Assembly (NCBI GenBank): GCA_021787395.1
Contig: JAJYLZ010000008.1
Location: 11,290 to 75,289 of the forward strand
DNA length: 64,000 bases
Origin: Chloroflexota bacterium
GTDB lineage: Bacteria; Chloroflexota; Limnocylindria; Limnocylindrales; CSP1-4
Reading direction: 5' to 3'
Shown: piece after piece, positions 42,341 through 51,042 of the stretch
How positions within the stretch are numbered: the stretch's first letter is position 1
How the letters are laid out: the number at the start of each line of letters is the position of its first letter
Translations under genes and position numbers: made by a program
The notes under the pieces: model-generated
Seen by the model: only the letters and a program-made list of their open reading frames with translations
Databases searched by the model: none
What the model was told of the DNA's origin: nothing

Positions 42341-43129
42341 TCACGCCTCGCGGGGCGCGAGCAGGACCCGGTCCACCAGCTCGGTCCACACCATCCGGTC
42401 GGCCGCCGTGATCGCGAGGGCGCCGAAGCCCGGCTCCGCGGCGACCCAGGCCAGCCCCGCCTCGCCCATGACGAAGCCCGCGGTCGCGTAGGCGTCGGCG
42501 AACGCGAGCGTGGGCCCGATCACGGTCAGGCTGCGCAGGCCGGCCGGCGCAGCCCCGGTCCGCGGATCGACGACATGCGCCCCGCGCTCGTACAGCCCGG
42601 ACGTCGCGACGGCCAGGTCGCGGACCCCCAGCACCGCGGCGGTCGCGTCCGCGCGGCCCGGATGGCGGATGCCGATCCGCCACGGCTCGCCGGGCTCGGG
42701 CTCGCCCGCCGCCACCAGGTCGCCGCCGGCCACGACCTGGAAGTTACGCGCGCCGGCCAGGCGCAGCCTCGCCGCCGCCTCGTCCACCGCCCAGCCCTTG
42801 ACGATGCCGGTCGGGTCGGGCCGGCCGTCCGGGCGGTGGCCCCGCGGGTCGAACGCGCCGCCGGACCGGTCGCGGACCAGGTCGGCGAGGGTGAACATCG
42901 CCTGGACGTCCGAGCTGGCGTCCTGGAACGCGAGCTCGCCCGTGCCCACGCGCGTGACCTCGCTTTCGGGCCGGAACGGGCTGAACCGGCGGTCCACGTC
43001 GTGGAGCCACTCGACGACCGCCTCGATGACGGCGTCCTCGACGAACGGGGCGCGGATGTCGACGGTCACGACCGTGCCCATGACGGGCTCAGTTCGCAGC
43101 TGGCGCGCCGCATGCGCCGGTGAGCTCAC
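42341..43129 (-). CDS. apbE: FAD:protein FMN transferase
   Basis: MGT, DPTGIVKGWAVD, AGGD, ATSGLYERG and ADAYATA; start may be 43081. Confidence 0.9.
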   Translation of the reverse strand: MSSPAHAARQLRTEPVMGTVVTVDIRAPFVEDAVIEAVVEWLHDVDRRFSPFRPESEVTRVGTGELAFQDASSDVQAMFTLADLVRDRSGGAFDPRGHRPDGRPDPTGIVKGWAVDEAAARLRLAGARNFQVVAGGDLVAAGEPEPGEPWRIGIRHPGRADATAAVLGVRDLAVATSGLYERGAHVVDPRTGAAPAGLRSLTVIGPTLAFADAYATAGFVMGEAGLAWVAAEPGFGALAITAADRMVWTELVDRVLLAPREA

Positions 43130-43130
43130 G

Positions 43131-43202
43131 TCACGGCTCCAGGCTGTCGAGCGCCGCCTGCAGCGACGGCGCGCAGGCGCCGCTCGTGTGCGTGGCGCGG
43201 CC
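43131..43202 (-). pseudogene. C-terminal remnant of an FMN-binding (flavinylated) protein gene
   Basis: Startless frame reads GRATHTSGACAPSLQAALD*, similar to the FMN_bind C-terminus SGATxTSxGYxxSLQxALD; directly upstream of apbE. Confidence 0.5.
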
Positions 43203-43264
43203 GCGGCACGGAGCGGGCTCGGGGCGCGGGTGCGGCGGTCACCCCCGGATCGTCCGGCGGGCGG

Positions 43265-43281
43265 ATGAGGCCCCGCTGAGA
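43265..43281 (-). promoter_or_regulatory. MprA-type operator TCTCAG-N5-CCTCAT
   Basis: Minus strand, upstream of the remnant and apbE. Confidence 0.55.
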
Positions 43282-43288
43282 GCCGACC

Positions 43289-45310
43289 TCAGGCGGCCCC
43301 CGAGCAGTCGTACAGGCTGCCGCCGCCCGCCCCGGCGACCTGGCGGCAGTGGCCCTGGACCCAAGCGTTGCGCTCGCCGGCCACGCTCCCCTGCCCGTCC
43401 CCGCCGAAGAACCCGCCGGGTCCCGCTCCCCGCCCGCCGAGCAGGACGTACCGCAGCTGCCCGTCGTGCACGTACTGCTGGAGCTGCTCCAGGGTCGGGA
43501 CCGGGTCGCTGCCCATGAAGCCGCCCATCGCCATGACCGGGACGCCGGACGCGAGCTGGAGCGGTCCGGCCGCGCTGGCCGACGAGACCGCCACCAGCCA
43601 GGTGGCCGAGCCCCGGTTGGCGACGAGGTAGTCAACCAGGGCGCGGTCGGTGCCGCCGGGATCGCCGCGGAAGCCGGCGAAGCCACCTGGCCCAGGCAAG
43701 CCACTCGGCCCGCCGCCGACGGGCCCGGCCGCCGGGTCGCCGCCCGTGATCGCCCGGCCGACCGTCGCCGCCGTCCAGACGGACGGCCCGACCAGGATCG
43801 CCGCCAGGCCCGCCGCCGCCGCACCCTGCGCGATCCGCCGCGCGCCCCGGTCGCCCGGGACCGCCGGCATCACCAGGATGATCGACGCGGCCAGCGCCAC
43901 GCCCAGGGCCCCGATGCCGAGCCCGGGCAGGAACGCGGGCGCGCGCCCCAGCAGCTGGAGCTGCCACCAGGCGGTGGCGAGCAGGATCAGCGCGAGCAGC
44001 GCCCCGGCCCACGCCACTCGGTCGCGGAGGCGCCACGCCTCGACCAGGCCGGCGCCGGTGAGCGCGGCTGCGGCCGGCGCGATGGCCGCCGAGTAGTACG
44101 GGTGCGCGATCCCGCCCATGAGGCTGAACACCAGGATGTGGACCACGGCCCAGCTGCCCCACAGCAGGAGGCCGGCCCGGCGCCCGTCCCGGCGCGGGGC
44201 CCGCCAGCGGGCAGCCAGACCCACCGCGAGGCCGATCCCGGCCGACGGCAGCAGCCAGCTGATCTCCGTCCCCCACTCCGCGTTGAACATGCGGAGCAGA
44301 CCCGGCGCGCCGCCGAAGCTCCCGCCGGGGCCGCCGAAGCCGCGGGCCGCGAACCCGCCCGGTCCGCCGGGCAGTCCGCCGGGGCCGCTGGGGGCACCGC
44401 CGGTCCGGCCGAAGATGCGGCCGAGCCCGTCGTAGCCGAACACCAGGTCGAGGACGGAGTTGTCGGTGCTGCCGCCGATGTACGGGCGCGAGCTCGCGGG
44501 GATCAGCTGCACGATCGCCACCCACCAGCCCGAGGCGGCCAGCGTGGCCGCGGCGGCGAGGGTCAGCCCGGCCAGCCGCCGCCGCAGGCTGCCGCGACCC
44601 GCCGCCAGGTAGGTCAGCGCGAACCCCGGCAGCACCAGGTACGCCTGGAGGTACTTGGTCAGGAAGCCCAGACCCACGAGGGCGCCGGCCAGGGCGAGCC
44701 AGGCGCGGCGGTCCGACTCGAGCGCCCGGACGAGCGCCCAGGCGGCCGCCACCAGCAGCAGGACCAGCAGGGCGTCCGGGTTGTTGTAGCGGAACATGAG
44801 CGCGGCGACCGGGGTCAGGGCCAGCGCCAGGCCGGCGATCACGGCCGCCGGGAGGCCGAACTGCCGCCGGACTGCGTCGTACAGGAGGACGGCTGCGGCC
44901 ACCCCGCACAGGGCCTCCGGGAGCAGGACCGCGAACGGGCTCAGCCCGAGCGCCCGCACCGAGAGGCCCATCAGCCACAGGGCGGCCGGCGGCTTGTCCA
45001 CCGTGATGAACCCGGCCGGGTCGAGGGACCCGAAGAACATCGCCGACCAGCTCTGGCCGGCAGCCTGCGCGGCGGCCGAGTAGTAGGTGTTCGCGTAGCC
45101 GCTGACGTCCAGCGCCCACAGGCAGACCGCAGCCGCCAGCAGGGCCACGAGGACGGCGCCCGCCCAGGCGGACGGCTCCAGCGCGCCGCGGGCCGCCAGC
45201 GCGATCCTGGGCGCCGAGCCGGCACGCCCCGGCTCGCGAACCGGCGATGGAGACATGGGAGCAGAGAGGCTCAAGGGCGGAGACCGGTGCCGGACAGACG
45301 TTCGCGGCAC
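43289..45310 (-). CDS. ArnT/PMT-like GT-C glycosyltransferase (family 39)
   Basis: YANTYY, VDKPP, RYNNPD, GFLTKYLQA and many TM helices; start may be 45256. Confidence 0.9.
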   Translation of the reverse strand: MPRTSVRHRSPPLSLSAPMSPSPVREPGRAGSAPRIALAARGALEPSAWAGAVLVALLAAAVCLWALDVSGYANTYYSAAAQAAGQSWSAMFFGSLDPAGFITVDKPPAALWLMGLSVRALGLSPFAVLLPEALCGVAAAVLLYDAVRRQFGLPAAVIAGLALALTPVAALMFRYNNPDALLVLLLVAAAWALVRALESDRRAWLALAGALVGLGFLTKYLQAYLVLPGFALTYLAAGRGSLRRRLAGLTLAAAATLAASGWWVAIVQLIPASSRPYIGGSTDNSVLDLVFGYDGLGRIFGRTGGAPSGPGGLPGGPGGFAARGFGGPGGSFGGAPGLLRMFNAEWGTEISWLLPSAGIGLAVGLAARWRAPRRDGRRAGLLLWGSWAVVHILVFSLMGGIAHPYYSAAIAPAAAALTGAGLVEAWRLRDRVAWAGALLALILLATAWWQLQLLGRAPAFLPGLGIGALGVALAASIILVMPAVPGDRGARRIAQGAAAAGLAAILVGPSVWTAATVGRAITGGDPAAGPVGGGPSGLPGPGGFAGFRGDPGGTDRALVDYLVANRGSATWLVAVSSASAAGPLQLASGVPVMAMGGFMGSDPVPTLEQLQQYVHDGQLRYVLLGGRGAGPGGFFGGDGQGSVAGERNAWVQGHCRQVAGAGGGSLYDCSGAA

Positions 45311-45911: not shown

Positions 45912-46688
45912 TCAGCCGGCGGGACCCGGAACCTCCGCGGCCGGCGGCGAGAGGAGCGGCGAGGCGGGCGCGCTCGGCGAGGGCGTCGCGCTGGGCGCGG
46001 GCGACACCATCGACGCCCCGCCGATGTCGTGGCACAGGACGCAGGTGTCGTCACCGCGCAGCGCATGGTCGATCGGCAGCGCCCCCACGCTCGACGACTG
46101 GTGGCAGTCGCGGCACTTGAGGTTCTGGGGGTCCGGGTGCGGCTTGATCGGCGGCGGGGACGGGTTGGGCTTGTGGCACAGCTCGCAGTCGTTCTGGTTC
46201 CGCCCGACCATCGAGGTCGGCAGGTGGGCGACGGAGCCGTGGCAGTCGAGGCAGGGCTTGTTGAGCGCGGCGTGCGCCTGGGTGATCGCCGGTCCCTGCA
46301 CGGGCTCCTTGTGGCAGTTGGTGCACTCGCTCTCCGGGATGCCGTCGTGGCCCGGCGCCGTCCTGCCCAGCTCCTCGTTGGTGTGGCAGGTCAGGCAGGC
46401 CGTGAAGCCGGCCAGCGGGTGGCCCATGGCGGGGATCGTCTTGACGGCCGCTGAGCCGCCGCCCTCGTGGCACAGCACGCACTGCGCCGAGGTGGGGATG
46501 TGCGCGATGCCCATCTGGAACAGGCCCCCCGACGGCGAGGCCGCGGCGGCGCCCGTGTCGGCCGGGACCGAGGATCGGGTCGGGATCAGCTGGAGCCAGT
46601 TGGCGACCATCAGCGCGGCCAGCATGGCCACCATCGTGAGGTTCAGCAGGATCAGGACGCGGAGCGTCCGGTCCAGTCGCCGTCTCAT
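45912..46688 (-). CDS. membrane-anchored multiheme cytochrome c (7 CxxCH)
   Basis: CVLCH, CLTCH, CTNCH, CLDCH, CELCH, CRDCH, CVLCH; N-terminal hydrophobic helix; ATGA overlap with the protease gene. Confidence 0.9.
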   Translation of the reverse strand: MRRRLDRTLRVLILLNLTMVAMLAALMVANWLQLIPTRSSVPADTGAAAASPSGGLFQMGIAHIPTSAQCVLCHEGGGSAAVKTIPAMGHPLAGFTACLTCHTNEELGRTAPGHDGIPESECTNCHKEPVQGPAITQAHAALNKPCLDCHGSVAHLPTSMVGRNQNDCELCHKPNPSPPPIKPHPDPQNLKCRDCHQSSSVGALPIDHALRGDDTCVLCHDIGGASMVSPAPSATPSPSAPASPLLSPPAAEVPGPAG

Positions 46689-47233
46689 GCCGTCGCCCCC
46701 TTGGGGCTGCCGCCACCCGGCCCACCGGCAGTCGCCACGAGTCCGCCCAGCTGGCTCAGGTGGTCCAGCACCGCCGCGACCGCCCGGGGGAGCGCGGCCG
46801 CCACCGGCTCGGAGAGGCCGGCGCCCAGCTCCGTCTTGCCGACTTGGACGCCCACCAACGCCACCGACTGCGGCAGCCAGCCCATGAGCCGGGCCACGGC
46901 CAGCAGCTCCCCCACGCCGCCGGGGATGCAGCGGCCCCATGCGGCGCCGGCGGCCTGGATCTCGGCGCCGCGGAGCACGGTCACGGTGCCGGCCGGCTGG
47001 TCGAGGTCCACCGCGTCGATCAGCAGCAGACTCCGCGCGCCCTCCACGTCGGCCAGCAGGTCCACGCCCAGCGTTCCGCCGTCCACGAGCCGCGTGGCCT
47101 CCGGCAGGGCGCCCGGGTCGCGCTCCGCGATGGCGCGCAGCGCCTCCACGGCCCGCACGCCGACGCCGTCGTCCCCGAGCAGGACGTTGCCCACCCCGAT
47201 CACGACAGCCGGGCCCTCGGCGTCAGGGATCAT
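46685..47233 (-). CDS. hyaD: hydrogenase maturation endopeptidase
   Basis: GVGNVLLGDDGVG, DGGT and IDA. Confidence 0.9.
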   Translation of the reverse strand: MIPDAEGPAVVIGVGNVLLGDDGVGVRAVEALRAIAERDPGALPEATRLVDGGTLGVDLLADVEGARSLLLIDAVDLDQPAGTVTVLRGAEIQAAGAAWGRCIPGGVGELLAVARLMGWLPQSVALVGVQVGKTELGAGLSEPVAAALPRAVAAVLDHLSQLGGLVATAGGPGGGSPKGATA

Positions 47234-48030
47234 GCGTCGGCCCTCTTGGCTGCCTGCTCGAGCACCTCGGGGCCGCCGTCCCGGGACTCCACGACCTCCT
47301 CCCGGGTCGGGAACTTGTAGCCGGTGAACATGCTCGTGACCACGCCCACGTTCTCGATGTGGTCGACGAGGACGCAGCTGTACACGTGGAACAGCGCGAT
47401 GGCCAGGATCAGCCACATCGTCAGGTGGTGGACCAACCGCAGCATCTGCGGGCCGAGCAGCTCGCGCAGCCAGGCGAAGGCCGTGGCGCCCGGCTCGGCG
47501 CCCATCAGCCCGTCGAGCGCGAAGCCCGTGACGGTCTCCACCAGCAGCAGCGCGAACAGGGCGAGGTATGCCGCCGCCGCCAGCTGGTTGTGGCCGAGGA
47601 CCTTGGGGATCTCGCTGCGGACGAAGCCGTAGAACCCGGCCTGGCGGAAGAGCTCGGTGAACTGCGTGCGGTTGGTCGGGATGAACGCAGTCCAGCGGAC
47701 GAAGCGGTTGCCCGCCAGCAGGTAGACCGTGCGCACGACGCCCGAGACCAGGAACGTCAGGGCGGTGATGATGTGGACCAGCCGGATGGTCGTCATGACG
47801 TTGCCGCCCGGCGGGATGAGGAACGGATCCGCGATGTAGCCCCCGGTGAGGCTCAGGGTCACGATGCAGATCGCCGTGACCCAGTGCGTGATGCGGACCG
47901 GCGCCTGCCAGATGTAGACGGCCACCCGGTCGTTGGGCCGCTGCACCGCGTGATGGGCGGCACCGGCACCGTGGGCGGACGCGCCGGTCGGGGCCGCCGG
48001 AGCGGCCAGGGGCTCGTCGAGCGCGGTCAT
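47230..48030 (-). CDS. hyaC: Ni/Fe-hydrogenase cytochrome b subunit
   Basis: VRITHW, RLVH, GHN, RLVHH and FHVY; 4 TM helices. Confidence 0.92.
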   Translation of the reverse strand: MTALDEPLAAPAAPTGASAHGAGAAHHAVQRPNDRVAVYIWQAPVRITHWVTAICIVTLSLTGGYIADPFLIPPGGNVMTTIRLVHIITALTFLVSGVVRTVYLLAGNRFVRWTAFIPTNRTQFTELFRQAGFYGFVRSEIPKVLGHNQLAAAAYLALFALLLVETVTGFALDGLMGAEPGATAFAWLRELLGPQMLRLVHHLTMWLILAIALFHVYSCVLVDHIENVGVVTSMFTGYKFPTREEVVESRDGGPEVLEQAAKRADA

Positions 48031-49802
48031 CGGATGTCCTCCCCGACTCGGGCCACCACCTCGGCGGGCGTGTCCCGACGGGGGCTGAACACGTGCGCGG
48101 CGCAGGCGGCGCAGGGCGCGAACGAGTGGACGACGCGGAGCGCCTCGAGCGGGCGCTGGGCGTCTGCGATCGGCGTGCCGACGAGCGCGGTCTCGATGGG
48201 GCCCCGGAGGTTCGACCCGTCGCGCGGCGAGAGGTTCCAGGTCGAGGCGTCGATCACCTGGTAGTCAGCGACGACCGCGTCGCGGATCGTGACCCAGTGG
48301 GCGACCGTGCCCCGCGGCCCCTCGCCCAGCGAGAACCCCTTGGCCTCCGACGGCCAGGAGCCGGGGTCCCAGTAGGTGACGTCGGCGACGGCGACGTCAC
48401 CGGCGCCCAGGTTGGCGCGCAGGTCCCCGAGCCAGAGCGGCAGCTGCTGCACGACCACCTCGGCCTCTGCGGACCGGGCCAGCAGCCGGCCCACGACGCC
48501 GCCCAGCTTGTCAACGGTCAGGTTCAGGGAGTTCACCCGCTGGGCGATCGCGGCCGTCAGGTCGGCCTGCCCGTTGGCCAGGCCGACGAGGACCCGCGCC
48601 AAGGGGCCAACCTCCATGGGCACGCCCCGGTAGCGCGGCGCCTTGACCCACGAATACGCCGTGGCACCCTCGAGGCTCTGGATCGGCAGGGCCAGGCCCG
48701 GCCAGGCTGGCGTGGTCTGCCCGGCGCTACCGCTGAGCAGGGTGTCGTTGCCGCCCGAGTGGAGGTACCAGGAGCTGGTCACGGTCTCGGTGAACTCGGC
48801 GTTCTCCACGCGCTGGGACGCCTCGAGGTTGCCCTGGTCGAGGCGACCCGTCGGGAACAACGGCTCCGGCGTGTCCTTGGCCCCCTGGGGGAACTCCCCG
48901 GCCGACAGGCACCCGCCGGGACCCGCCCCGAGTCCCACATACTCCGGGTAGGCGGCGGCCAGCAGGGCGACGTCGGGCACGAAGGCCCCCAGCACGAAGT
49001 CGCGGGCGCTGACCATCTGGCCGCTCATGAAACCGTAACCGTCGGGGCTCAACGCCTCCGGGGAGTTGGCGTCCGGGACCTGCGGGTGGTCCCGCCCGGA
49101 CGCCCCCGACGGGCCTCCCCACGGTGGCGCCACCGCCATGCCGCCCACGAGGTAGGTCTGCGGATGCGGGTCCTTGCCGCCGAGCAGCGTCTGGATGCGC
49201 ATGAACTCCCGCTGCCAGCCGATCGCCTCGAGCATGTGGGCGACCAGCAGGAGGTCCTGCTCGGGCGACAGGCGGTAGGCCGGGTGCCCCCACCAGCCGT
49301 TGCCCAGGACACCCGGGTGGCCGTCCGCCAGCTCGGCCCTCAGCCGGTCCTGGACCTTGGCGAAGTCGCTGGCCGCCTGTCCCTGGCGCTGCGCCTGTGA
49401 CGCCGCCAGCTTCGCGGTCGCGGCGGGGTCCGCGGTCGTGGCGGCCTGGACGTCCACCCAGTCCTGCAGCTGCGACAGGTAGAAGTCCATGACGTGGTCG
49501 CGGACGAGCATGGTCCCGGCGAGCAGGTTGCGGATGTGCCGGGCGTTGGTCGGGATGGTGATCGCGAGCGCGTTCTCGACGGCCCGGACCGACGCCAGGG
49601 CATGGACGCCCGTGCAGGTGCCGCAGATGCGCTGCGCCAGGAGCCAGGCGTCCCGCGGGTCCCGGCCCCGCAGGCTGAGCTCCAGCCCTCGGAACGTCAT
49701 CCCCGAGGCCCAGGCGTCCGAGACGACGCCGCCGTCCACGGCGAGCTCGACGCGGGCGCTCCCGCCGGCGCGGGTCAACGGGTCAATCGCAAGCCTCGGC
49801 AC
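48027..49802 (-). CDS. hyaB: group 1 [NiFe]-hydrogenase-like large subunit, divergent active-site shell
   Basis: L1 RICGTCTGVH, FRGLE, GKDPH, YSWVKAPR, EGPRG, L2 SFAPCAACAAH plus a 21-aa cleavable tail. Confidence 0.9.
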   Translation of the reverse strand: MPRLAIDPLTRAGGSARVELAVDGGVVSDAWASGMTFRGLELSLRGRDPRDAWLLAQRICGTCTGVHALASVRAVENALAITIPTNARHIRNLLAGTMLVRDHVMDFYLSQLQDWVDVQAATTADPAATAKLAASQAQRQGQAASDFAKVQDRLRAELADGHPGVLGNGWWGHPAYRLSPEQDLLLVAHMLEAIGWQREFMRIQTLLGGKDPHPQTYLVGGMAVAPPWGGPSGASGRDHPQVPDANSPEALSPDGYGFMSGQMVSARDFVLGAFVPDVALLAAAYPEYVGLGAGPGGCLSAGEFPQGAKDTPEPLFPTGRLDQGNLEASQRVENAEFTETVTSSWYLHSGGNDTLLSGSAGQTTPAWPGLALPIQSLEGATAYSWVKAPRYRGVPMEVGPLARVLVGLANGQADLTAAIAQRVNSLNLTVDKLGGVVGRLLARSAEAEVVVQQLPLWLGDLRANLGAGDVAVADVTYWDPGSWPSEAKGFSLGEGPRGTVAHWVTIRDAVVADYQVIDASTWNLSPRDGSNLRGPIETALVGTPIADAQRPLEALRVVHSFAPCAACAAHVFSPRRDTPAEVVARVGEDIR

Positions 49803-49803
49803 G

Positions 49804-51042
49804 TCAGCGCCCCTCCCGCCCGACGGGGGCGTCAGGGCGACCGTCAGCCTCGTCGGCGGCCCCGTGCTCGGCCGGCGCGAGGCCGACTGTCGCAGCGGGC
49901 TCGGACCGCCTCCCCGCATCGCCGACCGCCGGCGGGAGCGGGCCCAGCGGGACGGCGGCGGCTCGCTCGTGGGCAGCGATCATGCGCCGGCGCTTGAACC
50001 GCACCCCCATGCCCACCGCGTGGACGCCCATCACGCCCGCCACCCCGCCCAGGAGCGCGCCGCCGACCATGTCCACGGTCACGTTGGGGAGGAACGGGAC
50101 GGGCGAGGGCAGGCGCTTGTAGGCCGGGCCCATCGCGTTCCAGAAGCTCGGCGTCATGCAGCCCACGCAGCCGTGCCCGGCGCGGACGTTCCAGCTGGTC
50201 TTCTCGCCGTACCTGACGGTCGGGCAGTTGCCCATCGTCTCGGGGCCCTTGCAGCCCAGCTTGTACAGGCACCAGCCCCTCTGGGCGCCCTCATCGCCCC
50301 ACTCGGTGGCGAACTCCCCGAACTCGAAGTGCGGCCGCCGCTCGCACTGGTTGTGGATGAGGTCGCCGTAGGCGGCCAGGGGCCGGCTCGCGAGGTCGGC
50401 TGGGGGCAGCTCGTTGAAGGTGAGGTAGTGGACGATGACCGCCGCCAGGTTCACCGGGTTCACCGGGCAGCCGGGCAGGGCCATGTACCGGGCGCCCGCC
50501 AGGGCCCGCACGCCGCCCGCGCCCGTGGGGTTGGAGCCCGCGGCCGGGGCGCCGCCGTCGCAGGCGCAGGAGCCGACCGCGATGGTGGCCAGCGCCCCGG
50601 CGCACACCTCCCGCACGACATCGGCGGCCGGGCGACCGCCGATCAGGCAGTAGGCGCCCGAGGCGCCGCTCGGGATCGAGCCCTCGACGACCGCGAAGTA
50701 GCCGTTCCGGTAGCGGTCCATGGCGCTCGTGCGCGCCAGCTCGGCGTCACCGCCCGCCACCCCGAGGAACGCGTCGTGGTACTGGATGTCCAGGACGTCG
50801 AGGAACAGCGCGACGGTGTCAGGGTCCGACGACCGCAGGAACGCCTCGGTGTCGCCGCCGCAGGCCTGGCCGCGGATCCAGATGACCGGAAGGCGCTTGC
50901 TGCCCTCGACGGCGGCGGCGATCCGCGGAGCGTAGGACAGGGGCAGGGCGAGGGCCGCCGCCATGGCGGCCGAGAACTGGAGGAAGGATCGCCGGGTCAT
51001 CCCCCGCCGCACCAGCGCGGCGTACAGCCCGTCGTCCTGCAT
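49804..51042 (-). CDS. hyaA: group 1 [NiFe]-hydrogenase-like small subunit (Tat signal, C-terminal TM anchor)
   Basis: TRRSFLQ, ACGGD, GSCAC, PGCP, HNQCERR, CLYKLGCKGP, NC and GHGCVGC. Confidence 0.92.
   Translation of the reverse strand: MQDDGLYAALVRRGMTRRSFLQFSAAMAAALALPLSYAPRIAAAVEGSKRLPVIWIRGQACGGDTEAFLRSSDPDTVALFLDVLDIQYHDAFLGVAGGDAELARTSAMDRYRNGYFAVVEGSIPSGASGAYCLIGGRPAADVVREVCAGALATIAVGSCACDGGAPAAGSNPTGAGGVRALAGARYMALPGCPVNPVNLAAVIVHYLTFNELPPADLASRPLAAYGDLIHNQCERRPHFEFGEFATEWGDEGAQRGWCLYKLGCKGPETMGNCPTVRYGEKTSWNVRAGHGCVGCMTPSFWNAMGPAYKRLPSPVPFLPNVTVDMVGGALLGGVAGVMGVHAVGMGVRFKRRRMIAAHERAAAVPLGPLPPAVGDAGRRSEPAATVGLAPAEHGAADEADGRPDAPVGREGR

Follow-up and report, generated by a model that had tools for sequence, protein, structure and literature searches.

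Group 1f [NiFe]-hydrogenases are known from Roseiflexus and other Chloroflexales (PMC6776052), and their small subunit is about 410-420 amino acids long (PMC11879354). Versions from Anaerolineae that lack cytochrome b have been termed a 1f variant (bioRxiv 2021.08.23.457424). In Roseiflexus and other Chloroflexales, in Acidobacterium ailaaui and other Acidobacteriota, and in Frankia synton-3, group 1f enzymes are encoded by a core of four genes, for a small subunit exported by the twin-arginine translocation (Tat) pathway, a large subunit, a cytochrome b and a maturation protease. The same core, with the same proximal-cluster pattern in the small subunit (CxxN/D and GxCAxDGG), is present in the DNA analysed here, a stretch of 64,000 nucleotides from a Chloroflexota bacterium (assembly GCA_021787395.1, contig JAJYLZ010000008.1, positions 11,290 to 75,289 of the forward strand; hereafter the window, in which all positions below are counted). 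In contrast to the hydrogenase of the window, canonical 1f large subunits carry RIEGH, CGVC, HFYHLH, EAPRG, VVPSTWN and DPCxxC in 61 of 61 loci and are the best conserved subunit of their complex. Their loci also differ in encoding a protease with an SxHQxG motif and often adjacent hyp genes, while lacking the heptaheme cytochrome gene and the 17-residue insertion described below. As judged from sequence comparison and phylogeny, the large subunit of the window belongs to a large, monophyletic lineage of Limnocylindria-type Chloroflexota (hereafter the variant clade) that is uncharacterised and has a rebuilt active-site shell.

Two other enzymes are useful for comparison. Escherichia coli Hyd-1 (group 1d) has the same fold, metal ligands and canopy arginine as the window's enzyme and provides the laboratory frame for the positions that have changed. 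In Hyd-1, E28Q/E28D, R509K, P508A and changes at D574 are engineered single changes that lower activity, whereas the changes in the variant clade are natural, combined, fixed in a lineage and accompanied by an aspartate at position 530. The second enzyme is the group 1e hydrogenase Hyn of Allochromatium vinosum (structure 3MYR) and Thiocapsa roseopersicina, whose Arg487-Asp103-His104-Glu436 set is kept in the window as R497, D102, H103 and E446. Unlike the window's enzyme, Hyn also retains the proton-gate glutamate, the His-rich motif, the canopy aspartate and VVPSTWN. The membrane partners of Hyn are Isp1/Isp2, not a cytochrome b and a heptaheme cytochrome c. In T. roseopersicina Hyn the Arg-Asp-His-Glu set was proposed as a proton route and tested by mutagenesis, and the E14Q protein retains ~50% of its in vitro activity (PMC3325256), indicating that the glutamate is dispensable in this relative. 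Additionally, E28Q in Hyd-1 is partly rescued by H2O/OH- entering beside the residue (PMC8020662).

The hydrogenase module of the window consists of five translationally coupled genes, all on the minus strand. The large-subunit gene (48027-49802) encodes 591 amino acids that match the Pfam family NiFeSe_Hases end to end (530 bits), and the best match to a solved structure by sequence is 3MYR (461 bits). Its open reading frame begins with GTG, ends with TGA and contains no internal stops, in DNA with a G+C content of 75%, and the genes called on near-identical contigs are of identical length. The two N-terminal and two C-terminal metal-binding cysteines by which group 1 large subunits are recognised are present as C60, C63, C564 and C567, together with H570. 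A C-terminal extension of 21 residues follows His570 (48030-48092, minus strand); such tails are ~20 amino acids long in the variant clade versus ~15 in canonical relatives.

To relate the window's residues to those of known enzymes, we aligned the large subunit to E. coli Hyd-1 (HyaB of MG1655), Salmonella Hyd-5 and A. vinosum Hyn, and we counted the residues found at each position in 136 variant-clade and 65 canonical sequences. Residues are given below in one-letter code with Hyd-1 numbering unless the window's own numbering is indicated. At the site of the proton-gate glutamate, E28, the window has Gly13 (codon GGC, 49764-49766, minus strand). The clade has glycine at this site in 116 sequences, asparagine in 12, serine in four and aspartate in four, and never glutamate, whereas all 65 canonical sequences have glutamate. 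The motif VVPSTWN reads IDASTWN, with Asp518-Ala519-Ser520 of the window (48243-48251, minus strand) in place of Val530-Pro531-Ser/Thr532. The new aspartate, encoded by GAC at 48249-48251, occupies position 530 in 136/136 clade members versus 0/65 canonical sequences, and in a set of 150 representatives at 50% identity, drawn from 1.8 billion proteins, it is confined to this clade. The adjacent P531, Ala519 in the window, is alanine or glycine across the clade. We take residue 530 to line the CO pocket on the iron side and not on the side of nickel and Cys576; that Asp530 merely stands in for Glu28, as a carboxylate close by, was considered and is not favoured.

The remainder of the shell has changed as well. 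The canopy aspartate D574 is replaced in the window by Ala562 (DPC to APC, 48117-48119, minus strand); this site is aspartate in 65/65 canonical sequences and in the clade is alanine in 85, asparagine in 17, aspartate in 15, serine in 12 and glycine in five. Between the N-terminal cysteines, CGVC reads CGTC, with Thr62 (49617-49619, minus strand) at the position of V78, which is threonine in 124/136 clade members and valine in all 65 canonical sequences. L126 is serine in the window, and V78 and L126 correspond to the gas-gate pair V74/L122 of Desulfovibrio fructosovorans. Further replacements in the window are H122 by D106, A507 by G495 and L512 by V500. Replacements fixed in the clade are V530D, P531G/A, loss of E28, V78T, N227D (119/136), G503S, A507G and L512V, while I27, H30, H122, H125, L126, H127, Y206, T569 and D574 are relaxed; of these, the His-rich motif is lost across the clade. 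The clade also has an insertion of its own of ~17 residues after LVGGMA (PPWGGP...HP, 49083-49136, minus strand), in which W228, G229, G230, P231, H239 and P240 of the window are invariant. The alignments bore out every motif reading of a preliminary description of this DNA, which had listed TRAGGS, APCAAC, IDASTWN, DFYL and EGPRGTV, and the remodelling exceeds that list in V78T, L126S, N227D, G503S and the 17-residue insertion.

In contrast to the shell, the metal site is retained. The cysteines C76, C79 and C576 are each present in 136/136 clade sequences and C579 in 135/136; the Mg-site residues E57 and H582 are each present in 136/136 and H229 in 135/136. The canopy arginine R509 is Arg497 in the window (48312-48314, minus strand), D118 and H119 are D102 and H103, E458 is E446 and H83 is H67. 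Across the clade, R509 is kept in 132/136, D118 in 134/136, and H119 and E458 in 136/136. These four residues constitute the same network as Arg487-Asp103-His104-Glu436 of T. roseopersicina, the numbering of which we confirmed on the A. vinosum chain. Of the canopy trio, the window has R497 and D102 and lacks the aspartate at 574, a residue likewise missing from all but 15 of the 136 clade members. The preliminary description had correctly reported an open reading frame without lesions and intact metal cysteines, canopy arginine, RGLE glutamate, histidine (H67) and tail. It had also proposed that this is possibly not an H2 enzyme; for this we found no positive evidence, and the metal cysteines, R509, D118, H119, E458, the Mg ligands and H229 are all invariant or nearly so among the 136.

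These states are shared widely within one group of bacteria. Thousands of hydrogenase large subunits were recovered from 5.8 billion proteins, and in the best 120 of these, which were inspected (53-100% identical), TRxGGx stands in place of TRIEGH in almost all. At least 136 homologues, 52-79% identical and all from Chloroflexota or Limnocylindrales-type metagenome-assembled genomes (MAGs), carry the variant states. They come from many studies, and some lie on megabase contigs. We additionally took 80 loci from GTDB species representatives. Those encoding proteins 50-73% identical to the query belong to uncultured Chloroflexota/Limnocylindrales and combine E28 to G with V530 to D. In contrast, those at 43-50% are all canonical (RIEGH, CGVC, HFYHLH, EAPRG, VVPSTWN and DPC) and derive from Acidobacteriota, Roseiflexus, Oscillochloris, Anaerolineae and others, including some Limnocylindrales.

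In a maximum-likelihood tree of 108 sequences that included references from groups 1c, 1d and 1e, the variant sequences are monophyletic, with a Shimodaira-Hasegawa approximate likelihood ratio test value (SH-aLRT) of 100. Their sister group consists of canonical Limnocylindrales sequences (SH-aLRT 97), and both fall inside a radiation of Roseiflexus, Chloroflexales, Acidobacteriota and Anaerolineae enzymes (SH-aLRT 99), apart from the 1c, 1d and 1e references. By its position relative to those references, the tree shows the variant clade as nested in group 1f and, as far as sequences can tell, descended from canonical 1f uptake hydrogenases. Canonical 1f loci are further marked by the standard active-site shell and by a core of four genes with no multiheme cytochrome among them, and the variant clade departs from both. 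The MAG RBG_16_72_14 (GCA_001797035.1, Chloroflexi bacterium) contains both a canonical operon (L021) and a variant operon (L088), on two contigs. Thus, the two types can coexist as paralogues, and their presence in one MAG suggests divergence after duplication.

Other group assignments were considered and rejected. Group 1l has been reported from Limnocylindria, and both it and group 1m were ruled out by gene order, Tat signal, cytochrome b and similarity. Group 1l loci have transmembrane genes between the small- and large-subunit genes, which are adjacent in the window, and groups 1h, 1l and 1m lack a Tat signal and cytochrome b. Similarity to group 1h is low, with the 1h structure 5AA5 scoring 87 bits versus 461 for 3MYR. 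The H2-sensing regulatory hydrogenases of group 2b are cytoplasmic, lack a Tat signal and a C-terminal extension and are linked to histidine kinases; this identity was ruled out by the Tat signal, the cytochrome b and the tail.

To assess selection, we compared the ratio of nonsynonymous to synonymous substitution rates (dN/dS) of large-subunit genes. Overall, dN/dS lies between 0.08 and 0.35, with 0.13-0.18 for close clade pairs and 0.19-0.35 for deeper pairs in which dS is near saturation. Because dS plateaus at ~0.6-0.8 in this lineage of 75% G+C, values at deep divergence are unreliable and only the close pairs are informative. A near-identical population variant of the gene differs from that of the window by nine synonymous and two nonsynonymous changes. 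Since dN/dS is well below 1, the gene by this measure is under purifying selection and is not decaying. The preliminary description had regarded the substitutions as concerted, and their occurrence under purifying selection in at least 136 homologues of one clade agrees with this. It had also named two findings that would count against its proposal, and neither was obtained: the substitutions are shared rather than private with relaxed dN/dS, and the enzyme falls not into a described subgroup with normal H2 activity but, strictly, into a distinct subclade of 1f with no characterised members.

The order of conservation among the subunits is unusual for this family of complexes. Mean identity within the clade is 58% for the large subunit, ~64% for the heptaheme cytochrome, 70% for the small subunit and 79% for cytochrome b. 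The order is reversed in canonical relatives, among them the sister clade of the same taxon, with 66% for the large subunit, 61% for the small subunit and 46% for cytochrome b. Pairwise identity of cytochrome b within the clade ranges from 68 to 89%, above every other subunit, whereas in canonical relatives cytochrome b is the least conserved.

The partner subunits resemble those of an uptake hydrogenase with one addition. The small subunit (412 amino acids, 49804-51042, minus strand) has a Tat signal and matches Pfam Oxidored_q6, NiFe_hyd_SSU_C and TAT_signal as well as TIGR00391 (361 bits). The ligands of its distal and medial iron-sulfur (FeS) clusters are present, the medial-cluster position reading SWNVRAGHGCVGC, and the proximal cluster has a CxxD/Asp pattern (CGGD and GSCACDGG). 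We considered the CxxN/D and GxCAxDGG proximal pattern as a feature of the clade and rejected it when comparison of the small subunits of L019-L067 showed it also in canonical 1f enzymes of Roseiflexus, Acidobacteriaceae and Limnocylindrales. A proline-to-asparagine change before the medial GHGCxGC is restricted to one subclade. Downstream of the large-subunit gene lies a gene for a Ni/Fe-hydrogenase b-type cytochrome of 266 amino acids (47230-48030, minus strand; TIGR02125, 127 bits, above the cut-off).

The last gene of the module encodes a heptaheme cytochrome c of 258 amino acids with seven CxxCH motifs (45912-46688, minus strand). Motif spacing is nearly fixed, at 28/24/24/22/24/24, in 18 of the 18 clade loci examined, and an N-terminal hydrophobic stretch resembles a membrane anchor. 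The gene is present in every clade locus that reaches far enough downstream and in none of the canonical loci. Against profiles and the PDB the protein gives weak matches of the c3/c7/TmcA type and to generic multiheme proteins, and the few named sources among its 445 homologues are hypothetical proteins of Limnocylindrales/Chloroflexota. The periplasmic hydrogenases of Desulfovibrio (groups 1a/1b) likewise have a multiheme redox partner, cytochrome c3; unlike the variant, they are soluble, lack cytochrome b and retain all canonical active-site residues, whereas the cytochrome of the window is a seven-heme protein, apparently membrane-anchored, whose gene accompanies that of a cytochrome b. 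Both the cytochrome b and the heptaheme cytochrome had been anticipated in the preliminary description. Our search of the accessible literature found no account of a hydrogenase clade that lacks the proton-gate glutamate or is paired with a heptaheme cytochrome. Because no canonical locus has the five-gene arrangement that includes the heptaheme cytochrome, calling it an undescribed hydrogenase-derived system, as had been suggested, is fair.

Between the two cytochrome genes lies a gene for a HycI/HyaD-type maturation endopeptidase of 182 amino acids (46685-47233, minus strand; Pfam HycI, 63 bits). Its sequence reads RCIPGGVG where E. coli HyaD and HybD and canonical 1f proteases have motifs such as SLHQNS, SPHQLG and SAHQVG. 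The lost histidine is one that we take to be His93, one of three metal ligands in HybD. The preliminary description had credited the hydrogenase with its own protease; a HycI-family gene is indeed present, but it is not of the intact canonical type. Among the genes of the operon, dN/dS is highest for the endopeptidase (0.30-0.45). Most clade members retain both a C-terminal tail and the protease gene, and HypD is common across Limnocylindrales generally.

To examine the fold, we built an AlphaFold2 model of the large subunit on a 44-sequence alignment of the clade. The predicted template modelling score (pTM) was 0.85, and template modelling (TM) scores of 0.87-0.91 were obtained against 3MYR and Hyd-1. 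Predicted local distance difference test values (pLDDT) fall below 50 at residues 9-14, 61-68, 210-242 and 565-591, which include metal-binding segments and the insertion. Because pLDDT is low around the metal site, we make no claim about pocket geometry or distances from Asp518, and the position of this residue relative to the iron ligands or Cys564 is one that we infer.

On balance we lean, with modest confidence, towards a large subunit that is still a NiFe enzyme oxidising H2 by way of a re-routed proton path. The five-gene product would then be a Tat-exported, membrane-bound complex with the large subunit as its catalytic subunit, which would still carry a NiFe(CN)2CO centre and oxidise H2. 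Splitting of H2 would take place on the Arg509 side of the metal site, and protons would exit by the Arg-Asp-His-Glu network that has been kept, by water in the space that Glu28, Val78 and Leu126 no longer occupy, or by both routes. Asp530, invariant in the clade, might tune or serve this new arrangement. From the metal site, electrons would travel over the three FeS clusters and reach cytochrome b (quinone), the heptaheme cytochrome on the outside of the membrane, or both. The metal ligands, the Mg site and the Arg-Asp-His-Glu network are invariant or nearly so amid ~55% identity, which argues for continued assembly and use of a NiFe centre. Compared with canonical 1f, the enzyme may be slower or differently matured, as the large subunit evolves faster, the protease is altered and no hyp genes adjoin the operon.

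A number of observations weigh against continued H2 oxidation. The literature calls E28 a 'universal proton gate', and the enzymes of Desulfovibrio and E. coli are severely impaired by E25Q/E28Q (PMC8020662, PMC5902676). Some basal or divergent clade members have also lost residues of the proposed route, R509 being glycine in L013, L016 and L029 and D118 serine in L016 and L029. Whichever two clade members are compared, the large subunit is less conserved than the other structural components. Further signs concern maturation: the endopeptidase of the clade lacks the conserved histidine of the SxHQxG motif, the protease gene is missing from loci L015, L018 and L029, and in L029 and P0137 the large subunit stops at the histidine and has no tail. 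A motif scan and tblastn with hypF/C/D/E of L027 found no hyp genes in the 64-kb window, and homologues of hypF/C/D/E lie within 8 kb of 27 canonical loci and of no variant locus. Expression of the operon was sought in three small metatranscriptomes of the mine-drainage study from which the DNA derives, and only spurious matches of 18-25 bases were found. Finally, we know of no role for an aspartate beside the Fe(CO) pocket.

For these observations one may consider a respiratory module whose NiFe subunit is no longer a conventional H2 oxidiser and either performs a different or very slow reaction at a re-lined metal site, with Asp530 as a new functional group next to the iron ligands, or mainly anchors a conduit of FeS clusters, cytochrome b and heptaheme cytochrome c; we hold this to be possible, though doubtful. 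In a more specific form, the module would have been repurposed, with the selected function carried by the small subunit, cytochrome b and heptaheme cytochrome, for example electron transfer between the quinone pool and partners in the periplasm or outside the cell, and the large subunit kept mainly for structure, assembly or slow sensing while turning over little or no H2. The inverted conservation, which runs from cytochrome b through the small subunit and heptaheme cytochrome to the large subunit in every clade pair, fits such a history, as do the degenerate or missing protease, the tail-less forms and the lack of nearby hyp genes. So does a stepwise loss of residues for fast catalysis, with E28, D574 and the His-rich motif gone throughout and R509/D118 in some sublineages. 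The source is a mine-drainage metagenome, and multiheme cytochromes at mine-drainage sites are commonly discussed with iron redox chemistry. Yet the near-invariance of the metal cysteines, R509, D118, H119, E458, the Mg ligands and D530 in 136 sequences is hard to square with a mere scaffold, dN/dS is well under 1, and the tail and protease gene are kept in most members, so that we regard repurposing of this kind as rather unlikely.

The changes could instead reflect new chemistry at the metal site. A polarised gas gate (V78T and a small or polar residue at L126), Asp530 and the loss of Glu28 might suit another substrate, another set of diatomic ligands or another bias, such as H2 evolution or the conversion of a molecule other than H2. 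Such chemistry would account for an aspartate that is invariant and exclusive to the clade, for the concerted and fixed V78T, G503S, A507G, L512V, P531A/G and N227D around the site, and for the clade's own conserved insertion. The rest of the architecture is nevertheless that of an uptake hydrogenase, with Tat export, three FeS clusters and cytochrome b, and the model is not confident at the four segments listed above, so that the pocket is not describable. We also know of no [NiFe]-hydrogenase relative with all four cysteines that uses another substrate, and consider new chemistry distinctly improbable. The gene might also be a pseudoenzyme in decay, or reflect an artefact of assembly or annotation confined to this MAG, and a large-subunit dN/dS of 0.13-0.35, compared with 0.05-0.09 in canonical close pairs, would be in keeping with this. 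The intact reading frame, the recurrence of the same states across many studies and on megabase contigs, the excess of synonymous changes relative to the population variant and the gain of new invariant residues make this hardly credible, and we consider it excluded.

The lineage offers a natural test of Cys-Glu versus Arg-based models of the proton pathway. Glu28 is regarded as a universal gate and Arg509, Asp118 and Asp574 as a canopy for fast H2 activation, and this lineage has dropped Glu28, Asp574, the His-rich motif and the gas gate. Genes of the variant type are frequent in Chloroflexota MAGs, from soil among other environments, and surveys probably tally them as group 1f H2 oxidisers. 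Should the NiFe subunit prove not to be a conventional H2 oxidiser, metagenome surveys would be miscounting these genes.

The operon is almost completely represented in four DNA runs of one mine-drainage metagenome study, which contain 81-100% of the words sampled from it. In relatives (L005:12395-17323), the heptaheme cytochrome gene is followed by genes for a YceI-like protein, a GT39/PMT_2 glycosyltransferase, a ferric-reductase-like FAD/NAD membrane protein, an FMN_bind protein and ApbE. In the window, positions 42341-45310 encode a phosphoribosyltransferase as well as GT39 and ApbE, and we saw neither a ferric-reductase-like nor an FMN_bind gene there. Lastly, our searches recovered a separate set of distant large subunits (P0204, P0212, P0230, P0241, P0248, P0262, P0269 and P0275) of ~470 amino acids with a CxIC motif and asparagine, histidine or serine at the E28 site, which may represent a sensory-type group that likewise lacks the glutamate.

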